Origin: Escherichia phage UPEC03
Sequence record: MW250785
Direction: 5' to 3' (one strand)
Length of the DNA stretch: 64,000 nucleotides
Both the position numbers and the translations under genes were made by a program. Below, piece after piece: positions 12,706-57,456 of the stretch. The notes below the pieces were generated by a model, which was given only the letters and a program-made list of their open reading frames with translations, ran no database searches and was not told where the DNA came from. Position 1 is the first letter of the stretch; each line of letters starts with the position of its first letter.

Positions 12706-15028
12706 ATGGCTGATTTGAAATTAGGTACAACGCTGGGTGGTGCGGGTATCTGGAGTGCTTCTAACCTTCCTCTATTGCCCTCTGGTGGACAATTAACGTA
12801 TAAAGGCTGGAGAGTATACACAGAAAATGATCGTCCAACAGCGGAGGATATAGACGCACTATCGACGATTAACGGCGGTACTGTTGCGGTATAAAGGCTG
12901 GAGAGTATACACAGAAAATGATCGTCCAACAGCGGAGGATATAGACGCACTATCGACGATTAACGGCGGTACTGTTGCGAAGAATACTACATTCAATCAG
13001 AATTTGGTTGTGGGTGCTTCATTAACTGCTAACTTGATTCAATCGAATAGTGTTCTTACCATCCAACGTAGCGCAAACCCTGCGGAAATGATTTTCTATC
13101 GTCCCGATATTACGGCAACCCCGTCATCTGAAGCATGGGTTTTAAACATGTATGCGAAAGATGGTTTGAATCGAGGCATGGGTTCGTTGATTATTTCTGC
13201 TCGTACTGACGGTGGAAATAAAGTATATCTGCGGGCGAATAAAGACGGTTCCCCTAATACAAGTTTAACGCTGGATTCGCAAACCCAACAGGTAACAGTT
13301 GAGCAAGGATCTTTTCGCGTAATCGGTACTACGAATCTTGGTGTGACGAACGCCGCATCAATGGCGGTTAGCGGTGCGGTAACTGCGAATACAGTAACCC
13401 CGACAAACTGGGCTAACCATGATGAACGATATATGACGGGCATTCCTCGCGGTATGTCTGGAACAAGTTTCGGTGCTGCTGTTGTAACTGAAAAGAACGA
13501 TGTTCTGTCGGTAGGCGGTAACATCACCGACGGCCCATATGGTAACACTACGTATTACGGGCAGGTTGTCAACTATCGCCGTACATTGAATAGTGGGGTT
13601 TCATTAGTTCAAACATACTTCGGGAACGAAATGTGGTTTCGTCTTGGATCAGGTTCTCCGGGTGCGTGGTCATGGAACCAGGGCGATGCTAATGGTTGGC
13701 GGCGTGTTTATGATACGGTCAGTCCACCAACTCCGGCAGAAGTGGGGGCAGTAAACAAAGCTGGTGATACAATGACTGGTGGTTTAGCGTTACTTGGGGA
13801 TTTGACCTTTCGAAATTTGGTAAATCGTCATATTCGTTTCGAATACACCAAAAACGACGGTTCTACCGCTGTTGACGCTTACATCTATAAAGATGGTGTA
13901 GATAGCTCTACTCGCCGTGCTGGACTTCGCATTAACTGTGCCACACCGAACAAAGCGAGCGGGAATACTTTAAACTCAGGTGATTTTGTATTCGGGGAGA
14001 ATGGTAACTTCACACTGCCTGGCGGTGGTATGATTATTCAGGACGGCCTTAACTCTGGTGTTTATTGTATTTCTGCATTGAGTACATTATCAACAGGAAC
14101 GAAGAATTACCTTCGTCGTTTCCGTGGTGGTTCTGGTGATGTGATTTTTCATGAAACCGTACAAAGTAATACATGGCGTATAGCGTCGGGTGGTTCTGAT
14201 TCACAAGATGAAATGGTTCTTTCTACTGCTGGTTCTGGTTGGGTTCGATATCGTGGAGAGGTTGTTTCGCAATCAGCTAACGGGTTGCGGATTGCGTATA
14301 ACAATAAAGGATTCTTTATCCGAAATGACTCAAACACCACATATTTCTTGTTGACTAATGATAATGATCCCTATGGCTCGTACAACAGTCTTCGCCCTTT
14401 GTATATCAACAATGATACTGGTTCTGTAACGTTAGGTCATGCTGTTGGAATAGGCGGAAACCTCAGCGTCAACGGTACATTTACCACAGCAAACAGCAGT
14501 TTGAGCAATGGTCAATTAGTATTAAACGGTTCAGGCGATTCGCAAGTTTATTTTTCACGAAGTGGTGCTAACCCTCGCGATATGAGAATTTTCCATTCTG
14601 GTGATGCTTCTCGCGGGAACCGTGTTGAAATTGCTGATTCTACATCATATCTGGTTTATTTTGAGCGTCATCCGTCAAGTGGCATTCAGTTGTCCATGAA
14701 CGGTAACGGTATCTTTAACGATGTGTATATTCGTTCTGATGAAAGACTGAAAAGTAATTTCAGTAAGATTGAAAATGCATTGGATAAAGTTGATTTGCTT
14801 GATGGTATGGTGTACGACAAAGCAAACCATATCGGGGGTGAAGAAACTACCCGCGAGGCTGGTTTAGTCGCACAACAACTGCAAGAAGTATTACCGGAAG
14901 CCGTTAAGAAAGGTGTTGATGGTGAACAGAACGAGATCTTAACTGTTTCGTCTTCTGCTGTTATTGCGTTGCTGGTTAACGCGATTAAAGAACTCCGTGA
15001 GGAAGTCAGGGAACTTAAATCCCGCTAA
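12706..15028 (+). pseudogene. distal long-tail-fibre subunit (gp36/gp37-like) with C-terminal intramolecular chaperone domain, frame-disrupted by a 91-bp tandem duplication
   Basis: N-terminal 62-aa fragment MADLKLGTTLGGAGIW... (12706-12894) ends in a stop; the rest continues in the +1 frame from 12884 (714 aa). Removing one 91-bp repeat copy restores a single ORF of about 744 aa. C-terminus carries the S-D-x-R-L-K autoprocessing motif (IRSDERLKSNF). Confidence 0.8.
12798..12979 (+). repeat. perfect tandem direct repeat, 2 x 91 bp
   Basis: Bases 12798-12888 are identical to 12889-12979 (gtataaaggctggagagtatacacag...ggcggtactgttgcg). Confidence 0.9.
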
Positions 15029-15030
15029 TT

Positions 15031-15050
15031 AAAAGCCCTTCGGGGCTTTT
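15031..15050 (+). terminator. rho-independent terminator
   Basis: aaaagcccttcggggctttt hairpin with T-run. Confidence 0.7.
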
Positions 15051-15056
15051 TCTTTT

Positions 15057-15064
15057 TATAAATA
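15057..15064 (+). promoter_or_regulatory. T4-type late promoter TATAAATA
   Basis: Exact TATAAATA 26 nt upstream of the second fibre gene. Confidence 0.7.
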
Positions 15065-15090
15065 TCATAAAAGCATTTGAGGATCTAATA

Positions 15091-17304
15091 ATGGCAGATT
15101 TAAAAGCGGGTACTACCGTTGGCGGTAATACTATCTGGAGTCAGGCAAATTTACCTGTTCTTCCTTCTGGAAATACTTTAACATACAAAGGCTTTAAGGT
15201 ATATACCGAAAACGACAAACCAACAAAAGCCGAAATCGGGTTAGGCAACGTAACGAACGACGCACAGGTGAAGAAAGCTGGCGATGATATGACCGGATCT
15301 CTGAACATCACAGGGGCGAATAGTCAATTAACTGTTCCTTATCGCCTGTTGATGCAACGTGCGGTTGCTGGAGATCCATACGTCCTGTTTGTTCGTCCAG
15401 ACAACAACCCAATTACTAACGGATATCCTTCTACAACGCTTCGTGTAATGACTATCACTGCCCGTGCTGCGACAACTACTGATCCGGTTTCTGGCGCTCA
15501 ACTGGCAAACATTTTGTCAGATCAGACAGCACAGGGTAACGGGTCATTAACTCTGCAAGCGTTTGCAGCCCCGAACACATCTACGGGCGCAAGCGGTGCG
15601 CGTACAGCGGAAGTCTATTTGAACGGTAACGGACAGTTATCAATGATAGGTTCCGGTTTAACGATCGGGATGCAGACTGTTGTAAACGGTACGATTTTCG
15701 GTACACAAATGGCTATTAAAGGCGATTCGAACCGAAACCTGTTCTTCCAGGATGCTGGCGATAATGAATTGAGTTTGATTTATGCGGATACCGGAAAGAA
15801 CTTATATGTTCGTACTGGTGGCGGCGCATATGCTACTCGTTTCGCTTCTGATGGAACTTTAGTATTAGCAAATCATCTAACCGTTCCTGGTATTGCTACT
15901 TTTAACGGTCAAGCAGTGATGAATAGCCGTTTGTCTGTGTCTACTGATTTTGACTCTCAGGGAGTCAATAGTGCGGTTATTCGTGTTGACACAAGCGGCG
16001 ACGGAAACGCGGTTGGTGATGGTGTAACCCATTTAGGATATAAAGACGGCAACGGAAGATTCAACCATTATTTCCGTGGTACTGGATCGTTATTTGTTAA
16101 CACCAAACTTGGTATGAACATCAACGTACCATCTTATTATAACGATGTACCACAAACCACTCCAGCACAATATTTCTTGTCTACGGGTACGCAAGGCGCG
16201 AAAAATTATTTGCGTCAGTTCCGAGGCGGCAACGCGGATACGATCTGGCATGAAACTGTTCAGGGTGGCTTATATCGTTTAGCGTCTGGTAGCACTGATG
16301 CGCAAGAAGAATTCATGGTTTCTACTGCTGGCTATATCAGATCTCGCGTAGAAGTACAAAGTGCTTCGTGTGGTTCTGGCGGTCAGTTCCGCGCGGTTCA
16401 GGGTAACTTCGGCGTGATGCACCGAAATGATGGTGGTAACTATTACTTCCTGATTACTAACTCTGGCGATCCGTGGGGAACGTGGAACGGATTACGCCCA
16501 TTCACCATTGGTTTGACCACGGGTATTGTATCGATGTCCAGCGGTGTTAATATCTCCGGTGGTTTCAACATCAACGGTGCTGCTGAATTTAACAACGGTC
16601 TGGGTTGTGGTACTGCAAACGGATTGGGCGCAAACGCAATATCTCTGGGTGATACCGATACAGGTTTTGTTCAAGAAGGTGATGGTATTCTCAACGCCTA
16701 CGCGAACAGCCAACGAATTCAACGTTGGACAACAGGGGCTAGTGCAGTTTATAAGCAATTGCAGGTTCAAGGCGTTAACGGGCCAGCATTACTTCTGAAC
16801 AACACCGCAAGCAACCAGTCTGTATACATGCTTTTGCAATATGCAGGTACAAACGCTGGTTATCTGGGCTTTGGTGGTTCTGATAACACCATGACAATGC
16901 ACAACTACCAGTTGAATACAAACTTACAGTTGCGCGTAAGTGACATATATGTAAACCGTGCATTGTATGGTGAAAGCACAGGCAACTTTACTGATGTGTA
17001 TATTCGTTCAGATCGCCGTCTAAAATCGAACCTGGTTGAGATTAAAGATGCTCTGGTTAAAGTAGAACAGCTTACAGGCTATGTATACGATAAACAATCA
17101 AAAGATGCGGACGAAATTGTATACCATCGCGAATCTGGTCTGATTGCACAAGATGTTCAGGAAGTATTACCTGATGCAGTAAAAGAAGATAGTAACTCCG
17201 GTATGCTTACGATTTCACCTGCGGGTGTTAACGCGCTTCTGGTGAATGCAATCAACGAACTGCGCGAACGTCTGGAAGCAATTGAAAACAAATTAGGGGC
17301 TTAA
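15091..17304 (+). CDS. 37: distal long-tail-fibre subunit (gp37-like) with C-terminal intramolecular chaperone domain
   Basis: 737 aa; N-terminus MADLKAGTTVGGNTIW...LTYKGFKVYTENDKP resembles T4 gp36/gp37 N-termini; internal NYLRQFRGG...WHETVQ and FLITNSGDP...GLRP motifs shared with gp34/gp37; C-terminal IRSDRRLKSNL autoprocessing motif. Confidence 0.85.
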   Translation: MADLKAGTTVGGNTIWSQANLPVLPSGNTLTYKGFKVYTENDKPTKAEIGLGNVTNDAQVKKAGDDMTGSLNITGANSQLTVPYRLLMQRAVAGDPYVLFVRPDNNPITNGYPSTTLRVMTITARAATTTDPVSGAQLANILSDQTAQGNGSLTLQAFAAPNTSTGASGARTAEVYLNGNGQLSMIGSGLTIGMQTVVNGTIFGTQMAIKGDSNRNLFFQDAGDNELSLIYADTGKNLYVRTGGGAYATRFASDGTLVLANHLTVPGIATFNGQAVMNSRLSVSTDFDSQGVNSAVIRVDTSGDGNAVGDGVTHLGYKDGNGRFNHYFRGTGSLFVNTKLGMNINVPSYYNDVPQTTPAQYFLSTGTQGAKNYLRQFRGGNADTIWHETVQGGLYRLASGSTDAQEEFMVSTAGYIRSRVEVQSASCGSGGQFRAVQGNFGVMHRNDGGNYYFLITNSGDPWGTWNGLRPFTIGLTTGIVSMSSGVNISGGFNINGAAEFNNGLGCGTANGLGANAISLGDTDTGFVQEGDGILNAYANSQRIQRWTTGASAVYKQLQVQGVNGPALLLNNTASNQSVYMLLQYAGTNAGYLGFGGSDNTMTMHNYQLNTNLQLRVSDIYVNRALYGESTGNFTDVYIRSDRRLKSNLVEIKDALVKVEQLTGYVYDKQSKDADEIVYHRESGLIAQDVQEVLPDAVKEDSNSGMLTISPAGVNALLVNAINELRERLEAIENKLGA

Positions 17305-37223: not shown

Positions 37224-37756
37224 TAGTAGTTGTTAGCCCAACGACGCAGGTTTTCCGCCTGTTTCAGAGCATACAGCTTGTAGATGGTTTCCGCATCAAG
37301 TCCCAGCGCGAGGAACTTACACATGAAGAAGTGCCACTGGTCAATCAGTTCAAACAGGATTTCCAGTTTGTCTTCTTCTTTCATTTCTGCGAATACCTGG
37401 CTACGCAGTTCCTGGTGATTTGCTTTCCACGGTTTCCAGACACCGGAAGCCGCTTTTGCACCGCGTGACATACCGCCCAGAGCGGTGTAAAGTTCGCGGG
37501 TTTCGTCTGCGATTGCATCATCTTGCAGTTTCAGCCAGTCCAGGATCTCACCGCACGTTTTCAGGTTATCAGGGCGCGGAACCCATGAAAGGGTATCAGA
37601 CAGGCTTTGTTGTGCGTGGTTCTGGAGATCCAGCATTGATTGCAGAGGATCGCCGTTACGTGCCAGAACCTTTTGATATTCGGTATCAACAAATTCCAGA
37701 TCAGCAGGGTTAACCAGGTGCGCACAGCTATTAAAAACAGGAGTTTTATCAGTCAT
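37223..37756 (-). CDS. 56: dCTP pyrophosphatase (dCTPase/dUTPase)
   Basis: 177 aa; LGGMSRGAKAASGVWKPWKA and FELIDQWHF parallel recalled T4 gp56. Confidence 0.8.
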   Translation of the reverse strand: MTDKTPVFNSCAHLVNPADLEFVDTEYQKVLARNGDPLQSMLDLQNHAQQSLSDTLSWVPRPDNLKTCGEILDWLKLQDDAIADETRELYTALGGMSRGAKAASGVWKPWKANHQELRSQVFAEMKEEDKLEILFELIDQWHFFMCKFLALGLDAETIYKLYALKQAENLRRWANNY

Positions 37757-38250
37757 TTATTTGTCTCTTCATTATGAAAATTGCCGAAAATCTCTTTTGC
37801 GGCATCATTGTAAGCGGCTTGTGCTTCTTCAACAGTTGCAAAAGAACCCAAATGTTTTCGTTTGCCCTTATATTGAATACTTGCAGAAAATCGGTTTCCG
37901 CGAGGGTATACACCAATGGAACCGCTTGTGTTGTTTTTACGTTTGTTAATGTGATTTGCATTGTTTTCCGCTGTACTTGCTGGACGCAAGTTATCAGGAA
38001 AGTCACCAACATCAACGCCTTTGATATGGTCAATCATATCAGGGAGATACCCAAAACGCGAGTAAAATATAACACGATGACGCATATATTTCACACCTTT
38101 TGTTTCGATGCGGGTATATCCCTTTTTGGTTTTTGTCCCAGCTTCCATACCATTTTTAAGCCAGTAAACCTTTCCGGTATTGTAATCTATTCTAACCTTA
38201 GTCAGAAGATCCTTTATACCATCTATTTCTTTTTCGGACTTCGATCCCAT
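37753..38250 (-). CDS. HNH homing endonuclease with AP2-type DNA-binding domain
   Basis: 165 aa; HNH_3-like GKVYWLKN...RHRVIFY...GYLP...IDHIKG...NL followed by AP2-like GVYPRGNRFSASIQYKGKRKHLGSFATVEEAQAAY; 3-prime end of gene 61 overlaps its start. Confidence 0.75.
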   Translation of the reverse strand: MGSKSEKEIDGIKDLLTKVRIDYNTGKVYWLKNGMEAGTKTKKGYTRIETKGVKYMRHRVIFYSRFGYLPDMIDHIKGVDVGDFPDNLRPASTAENNANHINKRKNNTSGSIGVYPRGNRFSASIQYKGKRKHLGSFATVEEAQAAYNDAAKEIFGNFHNEETNK

Positions 38251-39251
38251 TGGTTGAATCTCAACTTTGCAGTTAAACCGGACACTGTATTTTCTTTCAG
38301 ATACTTAGCAATGTCTGCTTTGGTAGCACCATCACTTTTAATCATTTCGTTGATATCTTTTGACGGCCAGGGGCATTTATCCCATAAAACGACCTTTTCT
38401 CCAGCATCAATCAATTTTTTTAACCTTGCGGTAGTATCTGGATGATGTCGTTCATTGTCAAGAACCCAGACACGCATATTTTTATACGGAACATCGGACA
38501 GCGCCATTTGTCCGCCCGTAATCGCACCAGCATTATCTACAAACAGGCTATCCAGCGGCCCTTCAAGCAGGTAGACAGGTTTCAACGGATCGATGGTATC
38601 TTGACCATACACTTTCGTTGAGTGTTCACATGCTTTGATTGTCATGTATTTTGCGTTGGCATTGTCACGCAAGGCGCGTCCCTGGAATGACTCGATTTTA
38701 CCCTTTTCATCAAAGATAGGGATCACCAAACGCGGTTCATCCTTCGGTAAAGGGTATGCGTCCGCATTCACAGAGTTAACCAGGTGTTGCCATTGACGCG
38801 TAAACCAGAGGCGATCATATTTGTCTTTAGGTATGTGACGACCTGCAACATACTTAACGATAGGGTGATTTTCTGGCAACGTGTCCAGACGTTCGCAGAA
38901 CTGCAATTCAGGAATATATTTCTTTTCTTCCTTCGGCGGTTCTTCGTGCGTCTGTTTTAAATCTTTACGATCCTTGAAAGATTCCATCAAATACGCGGTA
39001 TAATCATCCGGGTAATAGTCTTTCAGAAACACAGAAAACGGCTTGCTGTAGTTGCAGTTAAAACAACCACACATCATGTGTGTGCCTCGTTTTGACGGGA
39101 ATATCCAGAAACGTTTTTTGTGCTTATCCTTCATGGAGTCGCCACAAATCGGACAACGGGAATGGATACTGAATTCTCCACCCCGTCGAACGATTTCGCT
39201 TTGTGGTAATGATCCCATGATACGAGTTGCGAACTCTATATCAAGATACAT
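38223..39251 (-). CDS. 61: DNA primase
   Basis: 342 aa (same length as T4 gp61); zinc motif CPICGDS...CFNCNY and blocks EPRLVIPI, FQGRAL, VWVLDNE.HPDT match T4 gp61. Confidence 0.9.
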   Translation of the reverse strand: MYLDIEFATRIMGSLPQSEIVRRGGEFSIHSRCPICGDSMKDKHKKRFWIFPSKRGTHMMCGCFNCNYSKPFSVFLKDYYPDDYTAYLMESFKDRKDLKQTHEEPPKEEKKYIPELQFCERLDTLPENHPIVKYVAGRHIPKDKYDRLWFTRQWQHLVNSVNADAYPLPKDEPRLVIPIFDEKGKIESFQGRALRDNANAKYMTIKACEHSTKVYGQDTIDPLKPVYLLEGPLDSLFVDNAGAITGGQMALSDVPYKNMRVWVLDNERHHPDTTARLKKLIDAGEKVVLWDKCPWPSKDINEMIKSDGATKADIAKYLKENTVSGLTAKLRFNQWDRSPKKK

Positions 39252-50107: not shown

Positions 50108-50779
50108 TTACTTGAACTGGCTGGTTGCTTCAAGTACCACTACATACGCAACGCCGTTTTCGGACGAGAATTTCGCAGCGCCGCGAGAAGAGATTTCAAC
50201 TTTGTAATCGCTGTTGATGAACTGCATGTTGTCAATCTTCATATCGAAGTTGAACATGTTATCACCTTCGTAATCGCCCACTTCCACAGAGAAGGTTGAC
50301 TGGCTTTCTTTACTTTTCGCGGTGATTACCAGCTTGCCGTTGATTGGCTCAACAGACAGGTCGGTCAGTTTCATCATGCGTGACGCTTTGATCAGTTTTT
50401 CGAAATCGTTCGCGCTAATCTGGAAAATCAGATCCGCAACTGGCATTTCCAGACGCTTCTTAGGCTGTACGATTGTGGTTGGATCGCTTGAACGCTCAAC
50501 GATTTTCATTTTCTCACCACGAATGACGATTTCGCCAGTGGACAGATCGTGAGTTACTTCGGCATCAGTGCCTACAACGTTCAGCATGTTCAGGAATGAG
50601 TTCAGATCGTAGATACCTACATCTTCGTCAATTACGTCAGAAATCGTTGCTTCTGCGTAAACTACGCTGTTGATGGATTTCGTCATAATGAACGAACCCT
50701 TTTTCAGCATTACAGACGGGTTGATCTGGGAGAAGTTTTTCAGGATGTCGATCGTTTGTTTAGAGAATTTCATATTCAA
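50108..50779 (-). CDS. 45: sliding clamp
   Basis: 223 aa (T4 gp45 is 228); position upstream of genes 44 and 62. Confidence 0.85.
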   Translation of the reverse strand: MNMKFSKQTIDILKNFSQINPSVMLKKGSFIMTKSINSVVYAEATISDVIDEDVGIYDLNSFLNMLNVVGTDAEVTHDLSTGEIVIRGEKMKIVERSSDPTTIVQPKKRLEMPVADLIFQISANDFEKLIKASRMMKLTDLSVEPINGKLVITAKSKESQSTFSVEVGDYEGDNMFNFDMKIDNMQFINSDYKVEISSRGAAKFSSENGVAYVVVLEATSQFK

Positions 50780-50793
50780 CCTATAGTTTTCAA

Positions 50794-51078
50794 TTAGGCA
50801 AAAGTGCCGTTAATCAGGGATTCTACAACGCGATCCGCCGCATTGTCAAGGAATTCTTTGCTTTTGGATTCTGTGATTTTCGTACCCGCTTCGCGAGCGT
50901 CGTGAATCAATCCGGTATGTACTGCGCTTACTGCTTCGTCGATCCGTTTGTAATGCTCAAAGCGTTCAGCTTGAGGCATCGCACGGAAAATCTCTTTGAT
51001 GTTTTCCGGCACTTTACCTACCCAGGATTTGCGAACGTTGTTCAGATGCGCTACATATACGTTTTGTTCTAAATTCAT
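50794..51078 (-). CDS. hypothetical protein (94 aa)
   Basis: ORF between gene 32 and gene 45. Confidence 0.45.
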   Translation of the reverse strand: MNLEQNVYVAHLNNVRKSWVGKVPENIKEIFRAMPQAERFEHYKRIDEAVSAVHTGLIHDAREAGTKITESKSKEFLDNAADRVVESLINGTFA

Positions 51079-51091
51079 ATCTACCTCAAAC

Positions 51092-51107
51092 TTTCAAATT
51101 GGGGGCT
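51092..51107 (-). terminator. hairpin after gene 32
   Basis: gggggctttcgccccc. Confidence 0.5.
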
Positions 51108-51123
51108 TTCGCCCCCGTAAGCA

Positions 51124-52104
51124 TTACAGATCCAGCAGTTTATCCAGGTCGTCATCACCGGAACCACCTTCCAGATCAAACGGAGGGGTATTATCATCTT
51201 CCGGTACGCTTCCGCCTACGTTCAGTTGACTTACGCCACCAGATTCTTTAGCACCTTTGGACTGGTTGCCATTATCGAAGTTTTTCAGTTCGTTGTCAAA
51301 TGAGTTCAGTTCTGAATCCAGATCCGCACCAGCGCTTGCGCCAGCACCCATTGCAGCACCACCGAATACTTTGGTGAACTTCGCGGTCAATTCCGCAGTC
51401 GGTTTGAACTGGTCTGGTGCAGTGATTGGACGCAGATCGCTCATACCTTCGAAGATTTCTTTCTGACGCGCTTCGTCTTCGATGCCTTTGATTGGGACAG
51501 GAACACCAAATTTGCTGTCGTCGTAGTTAGGCCAGTCGCCTACTTTCTTCGCGGTCAGGGTGAAGTTAGCGCCACCAAACGGACAGGTTACAGCAACACC
51601 TGGTTCATCCAGATCTGGGTTCCCCGCGATAGCCGCAGTGATTTTATCCATGATCTTTTTACCGAAGCGGAACTTAAACACCTTACCTTCGTTTTCTGGG
51701 TGCATTGGATCTTTAACCACCAGAATGTTCGCCCAGAACGATTGTTTACGTCCGATCATACCCAGTGTTTTTTCGGCTTCGCTGCCTTTCACTTTCGCTT
51801 TTTCGAACAGATCGTTTTCAGAGATATACTGACACACAGGGCAAGCATCGTAATCGCCGTGGGTAGACGGGCAGTTTTCGATGAACCACTGGTTATTCTT
51901 TTTGAATGAATGGTTGACGATACGCACGAACGCCAGTTCATCATCAGATCGGTTAGGCAGGAAGCGGATCACCGCAGAACCGTTTTTCTGTGCATCGACA
52001 CCGAGTTTCCACTCTTTTTCATCTTTCTGGAAGCCGGATGAACCTTTCAGAGCGGCGACTTGTTCTTGCAGTTTGGTTGGATCTTGACGTTTAAAGAATG
52101 ACAT
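51124..52104 (-). CDS. 32: single-stranded DNA-binding protein
   Basis: 326 aa; KEWKLGVDAQKNGSAVIRFLP, FWANILVVKDPMHPENEGKVFKFRFGKKI match recalled T4 gp32; acidic C-terminal tail. Confidence 0.92.
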   Translation of the reverse strand: MSFFKRQDPTKLQEQVAALKGSSGFQKDEKEWKLGVDAQKNGSAVIRFLPNRSDDELAFVRIVNHSFKKNNQWFIENCPSTHGDYDACPVCQYISENDLFEKAKVKGSEAEKTLGMIGRKQSFWANILVVKDPMHPENEGKVFKFRFGKKIMDKITAAIAGNPDLDEPGVAVTCPFGGANFTLTAKKVGDWPNYDDSKFGVPVPIKGIEDEARQKEIFEGMSDLRPITAPDQFKPTAELTAKFTKVFGGAAMGAGASAGADLDSELNSFDNELKNFDNGNQSKGAKESGGVSQLNVGGSVPEDDNTPPFDLEGGSGDDDLDKLLDL

Positions 52105-52107
52105 ATG

Positions 52108-52773
52108 TTATTTCTCGTTTAAGTTAATTAAAGTTTGTTTCATTAAGTTTCGGTATTTTACGATTTCTTCGTTACTGATTTCAACTAATTTTCTGTATGC
52201 GTTTAGTTTTTTACTAAATTCATTCCAGACGAAATCCGTTGCGATTTCATCGTGTTTATTTATGATGTCTAAAAACGAGTCGAGGATCAAGAATGATTCA
52301 TAAGAAATCACCCCAGACTGTACGAGTTTGCTGATATACGAGGTTGATGATTTGACGCTATACTGAAACACCGTTGAGAGGGGAATACCTTTCATGCGGG
52401 AAAATTCATACAGGTTTTTTACATCGTCCACGAAAATATTATCAATTCGCCTCAACTTGCCTATGTATTGACGATAAAACACGATCGTATCTTCGTCTAC
52501 ATCCCCGACCCAGAAGTCGGGGTTAGCTACCATGTTGGAGAGAAGTATAAGATATATTTCTTTAAATGTAAACCTTTCGGCTAACTTTTTGAAAAAATAC
52601 TTATCTCTTCTCTTTTCGAACGCTTTTTCAGTGATCTTTATTTCCCATTTGTACTTGATCGCGTCATACTTCCCAGCAAAGTGATTTTTCATCACCAGAT
52701 ACAGTTTGTATACCGCGATCGGTTTCAAACGGGAATTAGCGTCTGAACTGTCAAACGGGGTTTTAAATTTCAC
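52108..52773 (-). CDS. 59: helicase loader
   Basis: 221 aa; VYKLYLVMKNHFAGKYDAIKYKW, KRRDKYFF, LILDSFLDIINKHDE parallel recalled T4 gp59. Confidence 0.88.
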   Translation of the reverse strand: MKFKTPFDSSDANSRLKPIAVYKLYLVMKNHFAGKYDAIKYKWEIKITEKAFEKRRDKYFFKKLAERFTFKEIYLILLSNMVANPDFWVGDVDEDTIVFYRQYIGKLRRIDNIFVDDVKNLYEFSRMKGIPLSTVFQYSVKSSTSYISKLVQSGVISYESFLILDSFLDIINKHDEIATDFVWNEFSKKLNAYRKLVEISNEEIVKYRNLMKQTLINLNEK

Positions 52774-53021
52774 ATGAAATCATCCAGTGTTTGCGTCGTC
52801 GCGTGGTCTTTAGCCACAGAAGGACGCAGCAGATTGTTTTTAATGGCTTCGTCGCTAATCTTGTCGATGATCGCTTTCGGTACGGTTTTGGACAGCATAG
52901 CATAATCAATGCTGTTTTCGTCCATCCATTGTAACGTAGCTTCCATGTAGGTTGCCCCCTCAGAGGCAACCAGATTTTCGATATACAAGCCGACTTCGGT
53001 TTTGTTTCCGATTTCGCTCAT
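52770..53021 (-). CDS. 33: late transcription co-activator
   Basis: 83 aa; YMEATLQWMDENSI...EAIKNNLLRPSV parallels recalled T4 gp33. Confidence 0.75.
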   Translation of the reverse strand: MSEIGNKTEVGLYIENLVASEGATYMEATLQWMDENSIDYAMLSKTVPKAIIDKISDEAIKNNLLRPSVAKDHATTQTLDDFM

Positions 53022-53022
53022 A

Positions 53023-53286
53023 TTACGCCTTATCGATCACATCGTACAGTTCGATAAGTTCGTTGTTCTGTTCTTCGAACGCGGTACGTGCCTGTTCGTG
53101 ATACAGTTTGAACAGCTTGCCGAAGGTTTTACCGTCGATACCATAATCCGTTTTCGCTTTGGATTTGATGTCTTTGAAAGAACCCTGGAAATGTTCGATC
53201 TGAGTTTTAACGTTCGACGCTTCTTTGATCAGTTCTTTAACCGCTTTAGCGATGTCTGGGTTTTCTTGCAGTAATTCTACACTCAT
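53023..53286 (-). CDS. dsbA: DsbA-like double-stranded DNA-binding protein
   Basis: 87 aa; LIKEAS, GIDGKTFGKLFKLYH, ELYD parallel recalled T4 DsbA. Confidence 0.65.
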   Translation of the reverse strand: MSVELLQENPDIAKAVKELIKEASNVKTQIEHFQGSFKDIKSKAKTDYGIDGKTFGKLFKLYHEQARTAFEEQNNELIELYDVIDKA

Positions 53287-53295
53287 TTTGTTACC

Positions 53296-54231
53296 TCAAA
53301 AGTCACTTAGTTTTTCATACATACGGGTAAGTTTGCATTCCATGAAGTATTTCTCCATTTTTGCTTTGTTCCCGATTTTTGGAGCATTGTACGCTTCTTC
53401 GATTGCCGTTGCAACATCTTTCGGAATAAAATCAAAGTCGCGAAGTTCTTCGTTTTCTCTGTAGCGGATCGCCCACTCTTCGGGCATACCCACGGTCGGA
53501 TCGTCCGCTTCCAGCCAGGCTTCGAGTTCAGCAGCCCTGATTTGTGGGGCGCGTTCTCCTTCAACCTTCGTAACAATATAGTCATTTCGCATTTTAATGC
53601 AAGCGATACTATCTTTTTTATCGCCCTTGATGATCTTCATGCGCAAATCGTTACGAGGTGAACCATATTTCGGTGTAACCCATTTCTTTTGGGTTGGCGA
53701 CCACTGACGCACACCCTGATATTTTTGAAGGGCTGCAAAGTCACCATCAGCAGAAACGATCAGGACACGTTTACCTTAGGATACCGCTTTACGCGTCACC
53801 ACACCGATCACGTCATCGGCTTCTGCGAAGTCAACACGGATACCTTTGTACGGTAAATTAGCACGGATTTCATCGTATGTCGGGTGAAGGAAACCATTCA
53901 GGCGATCCCAGTCCCAATCCGATGCTTCTTGTTCCATTTTTCGTTTCTTTTTGTAGTACCAGGCTTTACTTCTGCGCCAATACTTGTTATCATCAAAGGC
54001 TAGAACAATTTCAGGGTACTCACCTTTGAATTTAACCACATTGTGACGAATGGTGTCAAGCACTATGTGACGAACAATTTGTTGGTTGATGTCATTCTGG
54101 TCTTTCGGCTTGAAGTTGTTCATCAACGTTGCTACCGAAAGGTTTGAAATATCTATACACATCACATCAACAGGATCATCGTCATTGCTCATTAAGCTGT
54201 TCAGGTTGAACATACTTGCAAATGAAGACAT
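53296..54231 (-). pseudogene. rnh: RNase H (5-prime-3-prime exonuclease) interrupted by an in-frame TAA
   Basis: N-part (53779-54231) and C-part (53296-53712) lie in the same frame and together align collinearly with T4 RNase H; TAA at 53776-53778 sits where T4 has E in FSLEGHK; start set at MSSFASMF with RBS. Confidence 0.8.
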
Positions 54232-54263
54232 TTCAATACCTCGTTGTTGTTGAATGAAACTGA

Positions 54264-54291
54264 TTATAGTGATCACTTTTTCAAAGTCAAT
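54264..54291 (-). promoter_or_regulatory. sigma70-type early promoter driving rnh
   Basis: On the minus strand: TTGACT, 16-nt spacer, TATAAT, about 30 nt upstream of the rnh RBS. Confidence 0.6.
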
Positions 54292-54308
54292 AGATCATTT
54301 CAAAAATC

Positions 54309-54450
54309 TGAGCGAAGCGAAGGACACGAACGTAGTGAGTGTCTATGTACTGAATGTACGTTTTAATATTTTTATATTTTATATATAGAGAAAACAGTAC
54401 ATTTCCGTATACTTTTTAACCAGTTTTAACTATCCGTTTCGCTTCGCTCA
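54309..54450. repeat. 13-bp perfect inverted repeat (tgagcgaagcgaa / ttcgcttcgctca) flanking a 116-bp AT-rich core
   Basis: Left arm 54309-54321, right arm 54438-54450; additional palindromes gtactgaatgtac and gaagcgcttc nearby. Confidence 0.8.
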
Positions 54451-56668: not shown

Positions 56669-56942
56669 CCGTTATGATGAATATTTCGGGGCGAACCCCC
56701 GATATTCTCACCTGTTGCGTATGTTGGGAATGAAACACATCATTTCCACATCCAACGAAGCAGGGGAAACCAGCGCAGTTTGTTTGACCATCATGAAGGG
56801 TGCATGGCATTCATCACGAACATGGTCAATATTCATGCTTGATACACTGGACGACGATACTCTATCATATAGTATTGATTCATCAGTTGTTCAAATGATC
56901 ACTGAATTATGTGAACGGATTTTAAATGAAACTAAAAACTAA
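56661..56942 (+). CDS. hypothetical protein (93 aa)
   Basis: ORF between gene 47 and the HNH gene. Confidence 0.4.
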   Translation: MHSRYDEYFGANPRYSHLLRMLGMKHIISTSNEAGETSAVCLTIMKGAWHSSRTWSIFMLDTLDDDTLSYSIDSSVVQMITELCERILNETKN

Positions 56943-57456
56943 ATCACATGGAGGTGGAAACCGAACAATTGATGATGAAATTTCTTCAATAAATGAACTA
57001 CTTCCTATGTTGGATGTTGATGTTGTATTAGGAAAGATATACTGGAAAAACTCACCTCGTAAGAGCGTCCCTGCTGGAACTGAAGCAGGGAGTAAGACAA
57101 AACATGGTTACGTTGCTATCGGGTATAAAAAGACGTATTATAGACGACATCGAATAATATTTTACGTCGCTAATGGTTATCTTCCTCTCGTAGTAGATCA
57201 CAAACACGGTGTTGAATCTGGTGATGGAATAGATAACCTGCAAGACATCACGCAACAACAAAACTCCGTTAAAATGAGAATGAGTAGAAGGAATTCTTCT
57301 GGGTTTAGAGGGGTTTCCTTTCACCAAAAATCAGGAAAATGGCAATCATGTATTGTGTATAATAGAAAAACAATATATCTTGGTTTGTATGAAACACCAG
57401 AACTTGCACATAGTGCATATACAGACAAGCGAAAAGAATTATTTGGTGAAATATGA
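56926..57456 (+). CDS. HNH homing endonuclease with AP2-type DNA-binding domain
   Basis: 176 aa; GKIYWKN...RHRIIFY...GYLP..VDHKHG...NL then AP2-like GFRGVSFHQKSGKWQSCIVYNRKTIYLGLYETPELAHSAY; paralog of 37753-38250. Confidence 0.75.
   Translation: MKLKTKSHGGGNRTIDDEISSINELLPMLDVDVVLGKIYWKNSPRKSVPAGTEAGSKTKHGYVAIGYKKTYYRRHRIIFYVANGYLPLVVDHKHGVESGDGIDNLQDITQQQNSVKMRMSRRNSSGFRGVSFHQKSGKWQSCIVYNRKTIYLGLYETPELAHSAYTDKRKELFGEI

Follow-up and report, generated by a model that had tools for sequence, protein, structure and literature searches.

The genome record of Escherichia phage UPEC03 (MW250785) raises the question of whether a gene encoding a T4-type RNase H (rnh) has been broken by a single base and, if it has, whether the break is real and what it would mean for the phage. 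We analysed a window of 64,000 nucleotides from this genome. A preliminary description of the window had proposed that two minus-strand open reading frames (ORFs) are parts of one rnh gene interrupted by an in-frame TAA, and three readings of the stop had been offered: a nonsense mutation in a non-essential replication gene, a stop that is read through, or a sequencing error. UPEC03 came from Kampala sewage, with avian E. coli isolate 19-1331 as isolation host, and went through three rounds of plaque purification; the genome was sequenced on a MiSeq (149,362 paired-end 151-bp reads), with Q30 trimming, SPAdes assembly and PHANOTATE annotation (PMC8928767). The genome announcement makes no mention of rnh (PMC8928767). 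In the annotation of MW250785, the rnh fragments are entered as unrelated hypothetical proteins, so that the record appears to be without rnh.

When 54231..53296 of the minus strand was translated in one frame, we obtained 311 codons with a single internal stop, at codon 152 (Table 1). The two ORFs share this frame, lying 519 nt, or 173 codons, apart, and the coordinates given for them in the preliminary description proved exact. With the stop masked, the product was similar over its full length to T4 RNase H (PDB 1tfr_A, 305 aa) in a phmmer search of the PDB (E = 5.3e-68), and the alignment read through the stop from query residues 14-311 to chain residues 6-305, which bears out the identification of the gene as a T4-type RNase H. 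The domain RNaseH_C (PF09293, the C-terminal domain of T4 RNase H) was detected in the downstream remnant at 102.8 bits (cutoff 25). The domain 5_3_exonuc_N (PF02739) covers residues 64-178 of an intact relative, straddling the stop site, with a score of 43.9 bits against a cutoff of 34.3, and the 151-aa fragment by itself, at 26 bits, stays below this cutoff. The neighbourhood is also that of rnh, with the late sigma factor gp55 divergent upstream and dsbA, gp33, gp59, gp32 (QUL76974.1 in the window) and rpbA downstream on the same strand; these assignments are based on the annotations of relatives and on one-to-one mapping of the proteins of Enterobacter phage EC-F1, and the Pfam labels on a Logan contig agree with them. 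In relatives, these 936 nt are annotated as ribonuclease H, and the UPEC03 frame is identical to the intact EC-F1 protein at 310 of 311 positions. Judged from these comparisons, the locus descends from an rnh gene. Because the stop divides its catalytic residues, the product is predicted not to be a functional member of the T4-type RNase H group.

Table 1. Features of the interrupted rnh locus in the UPEC03 window
Feature	Position	Strand	Details
Whole rnh frame, interrupted	53296..54231	-	311 codons followed by TGA, the natural stop; T4-type RNase H / FEN-family 5'-3' exonuclease
Premature ochre stop TAA, rnh codon 152	53776..53778	-	mutated base 53778: A on the + strand, C in relatives
N-terminal fragment, 151 aa, only product expected	53779..54231	-	ATG 54231; QUL76980.1, deposited as hypothetical protein
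Downstream remnant ORF, 138 aa from GTG 53712	53296..53712	-	RNaseH_C kept; without D162 and D164
Sigma-70-like promoter (TTGACT, 16 nt, TATAAT; 11/12 matches)	54263..54290	-	about 30 nt upstream of the rnh ATG; consensus match only

The minus strand at 53800..53740 reads GGTGACGCGT AAA GCG GTA TCC TAA GGT AAA CGT GTC CTG ATC GTT TCT GCT GAT GGT GAC TTT, and the codons directly 5' of the stop are CGT AAA GCG GTA TCC. It had been suggested that the stop sits where T4 has a glutamate and that one GAA-to-TAA change explains it. Both points held: in the 1tfr alignment, the residue opposite the stop is Glu145 of the T4 string KKFSLEGHKILIISSDGDF, and codon 152 is GAA in all four of the relatives that we read directly (EC-W1, leE, GAP161 and Margaery), from which UPEC03 differs at this codon solely by a C to A substitution on the + strand at 53778 (G to T on the coding strand).

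The region falls in the genus Pseudotevenvirus, with megablast identities of 99.0-99.8% to 37 records among the matches listed, which are phages of Enterobacter, Cronobacter, Citrobacter and Klebsiella; over 40-64 kb, no genome is closer than that of EC-F1 (99.7%). Read base by base, EC-W1, leE, GAP161 and Margaery all possess an uninterrupted rnh of the same length, and a chance interruption was rejected because these four relatives keep the 936-nt gene with GAA. An 81-mer centred on the TAA matched 43 phage records, none of them identically and 30 of them with exactly one base different, and the same 81-mer repaired to GAA was 100% identical in exactly 30 phage records. A 47-mer with TAA had no exact match in IMG/VR, JGI metagenome contigs or GTDB genome contigs, and the GAA 47-mer was present in 2 IMG/VR contigs. 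At the protein level, a collection of 15 billion proteins contained the exact 151-aa product only in the UPEC03 record and in one Logan contig, and the exact intact 311-aa protein was found in 93 contigs. The absence of the TAA allele from the scanned collections indicates a private allele and does not speak for a lineage in which the gene is split. The preliminary description had pointed to relatives split at the same site as a possible outcome; the 81-mer records and the direct reading gave a negative answer, with the stop carried by no relative.

The surroundings of the stop bear on its age. The rnh protein is identical to that of the relatives except at codon 152, and the 4 nt differences between GAP161 and the window downstream of the stop are all synonymous. 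This lack of decay after the stop points to a recent origin of the mutation, which may date from enrichment or plaque purification. At 54022, rnh has another substitution that none of the four directly read relatives shares, GGT in place of GGC (Gly70, synonymous). Across 38278-64000, the window and EC-F1 are separated by 137 substitutions, which are mostly synonymous or located in three mosaic patches; outside these patches, there are three isolated non-synonymous changes in about 25 kb, and the stop is one of them.

The three patches lie at 38292-38450 (the 3' end of the primase gene), 50829-50908 and 51497-52002, with rpbA and gp32 across the latter two. The genes flanking the patches encode proteins 100% identical to those of EC-F1, gp32 is identical to that of GAP161, and the three patches represent typical recombinational mosaicism. 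Elsewhere in the window, weak or no match to EC-F1 was found at 1-703, 12887-15091 and 37756-38278. At the left end, three EC-F1 ORFs are absent; the tail-fibre region has diverged, with proteins 24-87% identical; and the dUTPase and primase genes are separated by about 0.5 kb of differing sequence. These divergent stretches are probably host-range and accessory modules. We also observed an ORF on the + strand (56926-57453) whose product is 100% identical to an HNH-endonuclease-motif protein of EC-F1 and which lies between two genes annotated as recombination endonuclease subunits, T4 gp47 and gp46; its product is probably a resident homing endonuclease.

A single-base change seen in one isolate only might be an artefact of sequencing or assembly, or a minority variant, in which case the real UPEC03 would carry GAA and an intact rnh. 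Oxidative damage during library preparation gives G-to-T artefacts, and the change at codon 152 is of this type. However, damage errors are rare per read and do not reach the consensus, and four further observations argue against an artefact. First, the reads give a nominal Illumina depth of about 125-250x over the 178 kb genome (record, 178,307 bp) with Q30 trimming, and a consensus substitution error at more than 100x is very unlikely. Second, the same base was obtained by two assemblers. Logan applies its own assembly pipeline to SRA runs, and the first 3,625 nt of its contig SRR16019039_41 (38,166 bp) are exactly those of window 50776..54400, encoding the same 151-aa and 138-aa pieces as the SPAdes record; run SRR16019039 is very probably the read set behind the GenBank record, which makes this an independent assembly rather than independent data. 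Third, the context of the stop, GTATCC-T-AAGG, places it outside any homopolymer. Fourth, all of the 88 EC-F1 proteins mapped on the window align over their full length without a frameshift, and an internal stop occurs in rnh only, leaving the other 87 genes unbroken. Because of the agreement of the assemblers, the depth, the context and the integrity of the other genes, the suggestion of a sequencing error found little favour, and we regard an artefact or minority variant as improbable. It is highly likely that the stop is a true mutation, carried at least by most of the sequenced stock; this stock may be mixed, with TAA in the majority. The Logan contig ends exactly at window position 54400 (its base 1), within the AT-rich stretch that separates rnh from gp55.

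With the mutation taken as genuine, its effect on the enzyme can be read from the alignment with 1tfr. All seven active-site aspartates are encoded in the frame. Three of them precede the stop (D27, D80 and D139, the equivalents of T4 D19, D71 and D132), and four follow it (D162, D164, D204 and D207, the equivalents of T4 D155, D157, D197 and D200). The stop at codon 152 thus parts the first three from the last four, which are missing from the fragment. In T4 RNase H, the metal at site I is bound by D19, D71, D132 and D155 and that at site II by D132, D157 and D200, and a change from Asp to Asn at any site I position abolishes nuclease activity; the H3TH motif binds duplex DNA, and a C-terminal cap binds gp32 (PMC3012046). 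The fragment is without the RNaseH_C domain and hence, by homology with T4, would also be without these two DNA- and gp32-binding elements. The loss of four of the seven carboxylates together with the whole RNaseH_C region implies that the 151-aa product should be inactive.

The possibility that the two pieces act as a split, two-subunit enzyme was considered and rejected. The rnh frame contains no ATG, GTG or TTG from the stop to codon 174, so that the first possible restart is GTG174, residues 152-173 are lost and D162 and D164 would be present in no second polypeptide; rescue by such a polypeptide is thereby precluded. In addition, no properly spaced Shine-Dalgarno sequence was found before GTG174, ATG198 or any later in-frame start, and the downstream remnant is probably untranslated. 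The GenBank call for this remnant is a 114-aa protein starting at ATG 53640 (QUL76978.1). A naturally split gene was rejected also because no relative is split at the codon 152 site. QUL76980.1 and QUL76978.1 are halves of a broken rnh, and annotation as a pseudogene is warranted.

A split enzyme is one form of a wider explanation, in which the truncation is functional or selected, whether as a split enzyme, through a role of its own for the N-terminal fragment, or because loss of rnh is favoured on an E. coli host. The N-terminal part of T4 RNase H carries a clamp-binding peptide. The genus is mostly known from Enterobacter, Cronobacter, Klebsiella and Citrobacter, and UPEC03 was isolated on avian E. 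coli; moreover, the stop is among the few isolated non-synonymous differences from EC-F1 outside the mosaic patches. These points would fit selection. However, a single allele in a single isolate does not amount to evidence of selection, a functional split is opposed by the positions of the possible starts and their want of a usable ribosome-binding site, and the N and I domains of T4 RNase H are described as not separable (PMC3012046). We therefore give this explanation as a whole only a very small chance, and we consider it just as doubtful that loss of rnh was selected during propagation on avian pathogenic E. coli or that a clamp-binding N-terminal fragment has acquired a new role. If selection were involved, the intact phage FEN-type nuclease might harm that host or trigger a host defence; no link between any defence system and the rnh protein was found in this analysis.

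The other reading that would preserve the enzyme is a leaky or suppressed stop, by which an ochre suppressor tRNA of phage or host, or the context of the stop, would still allow useful amounts of full-length RNase H to be made. The 159 codons downstream of the stop are perfectly intact, and T4-like phages can carry tRNA genes, both of which are compatible with read-through. However, intact downstream sequence is equally expected after a very recent mutation, and the features of programmed read-through or recoding were not found. First, the stop is conserved in no relative, with GAA in four of four and the TAA 81-mer in no record. Second, more genes in the window end naturally in TAA than in any other stop codon (47 of the 88 mapped genes, 7 of these 47 with TAAG, like the rnh stop), so an efficient ochre suppressor would extend half of the proteome; terminator usage in the 88 genes gave no sign of TAA reassignment. 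Third, ARAGORN detected no tRNA gene within the 64-kb window, and the only tRNAs of the complete EC-F1 genome are tRNA-Met(CAT) and tRNA-Gly(TCC), neither of which is one mutation away from a UUA anticodon. Neither a suppressor tRNA nor disuse of TAA as a terminator was thus seen in the window and the EC-F1 genome, and the read-through that had been proposed is most unlikely given the frequency of TAA as a terminator and the lack of a suppressor tRNA in the window or the closest relative.

Expression of the broken gene and its neighbours was assessed from predicted promoters. The strong sigma-70-like match upstream of rnh (Table 1) suggests that the broken gene is probably still transcribed, and early. 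Matches of this type inside or downstream of rnh were only weak, no MotA-box middle promoter was found on the minus strand of 51000-54400, and no T4 late promoter (TATAAATA) was found on either strand of 50500-54400. The roughly 480 untranslated nt after the stop could give some Rho-dependent polarity on dsbA, 33, 59 and 32; the fact that UPEC03 grows implies that these four genes are adequately expressed.

Among the three readings offered at the outset, a true nonsense mutation in a dispensable gene is therefore the one we favour. The likely explanation, in our judgement, is a genuine, recent and isolate-private ochre knock-out of rnh, a non-essential replication gene, in UPEC03. A coding-strand G to T change has turned GAA (Glu152) into TAA, so that translation would end after residue 151. 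The resulting fragment, with three of seven aspartates and no RNaseH_C, would leave the phage without a working RNase H. If the phage behaves like rnh- mutants of T4, Okazaki primers would be removed instead by the 5'-3' nuclease of host DNA polymerase I (Pol I), and the phage would be viable; this substitution is an extrapolation from T4 to a different genus. The mutation would be neutral or mildly deleterious and could have been fixed by drift or by the plaque-purification bottleneck.

If the mutation is real, UPEC03 provides a natural example of the dispensability of T4-type RNase H beyond T4, in Pseudotevenvirus. UPEC03 was isolated as a candidate for phage therapy. A phage that lacks rnh may give smaller bursts and rely on host Pol I, a point to consider in the choice of production and target strains. 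The significance of the finding is modest: rnh was already known from T4 to be dispensable, its loss of function here through a point mutation is nothing out of the ordinary, and no new biological question is raised.

Three sets of phages offer a comparison. The first consists of close relatives with an intact rnh, namely EC-F1, EC-W1, leE, GAP161 and Margaery, which share the same 936 nt and are 99.1-99.8% identical to UPEC03 in nucleotide sequence over 1.2 kb; their proteins differ from that of UPEC03 at codon 152 alone, where they have GAA (Glu) and UPEC03 has TAA. The second set comprises two Slopekvirus phages, Klebsiella phage CPRSB (OM971649.1, 373-1308) and vB_KpnM_Prick1_ER44 (PP738780.1, 374-1308), in which rnh is annotated in 4 and 2 pieces, respectively. 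Like UPEC03, they are deposited T4-like genomes with rnh in pieces, but their lesions are indels at another site, not a substitution. Compared with the intact gene of RCIP0020, the A6 run at rnh nt 544 (CAGAAAAAATGG) is one A short in both records, and another three indels of a single base occur in CPRSB, so that these splits look like homopolymer sequencing error rather than biology. Recurrent loss of rnh was accordingly rejected, because these homopolymer indels elsewhere in rnh are not comparable with the UPEC03 stop. The third set, which is the closest precedent, consists of rnh- mutants of T4 made in the laboratory. Their gene is a homologue of the UPEC03 gene (E = 5e-68) and lies in the same neighbourhood of dsbA, 33, 59 and 32. 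T4 rnh- phage is viable since the 5'-3' exonuclease of host Pol I substitutes for the enzyme (Hobbs and Nossal 1996, as cited in PMC3012046), and this account, as given there, is compatible with a viable UPEC03. In contrast, the T4 lesions were engineered, whereas the UPEC03 allele is a spontaneous point nonsense mutation in an environmental isolate of the genus Pseudotevenvirus.
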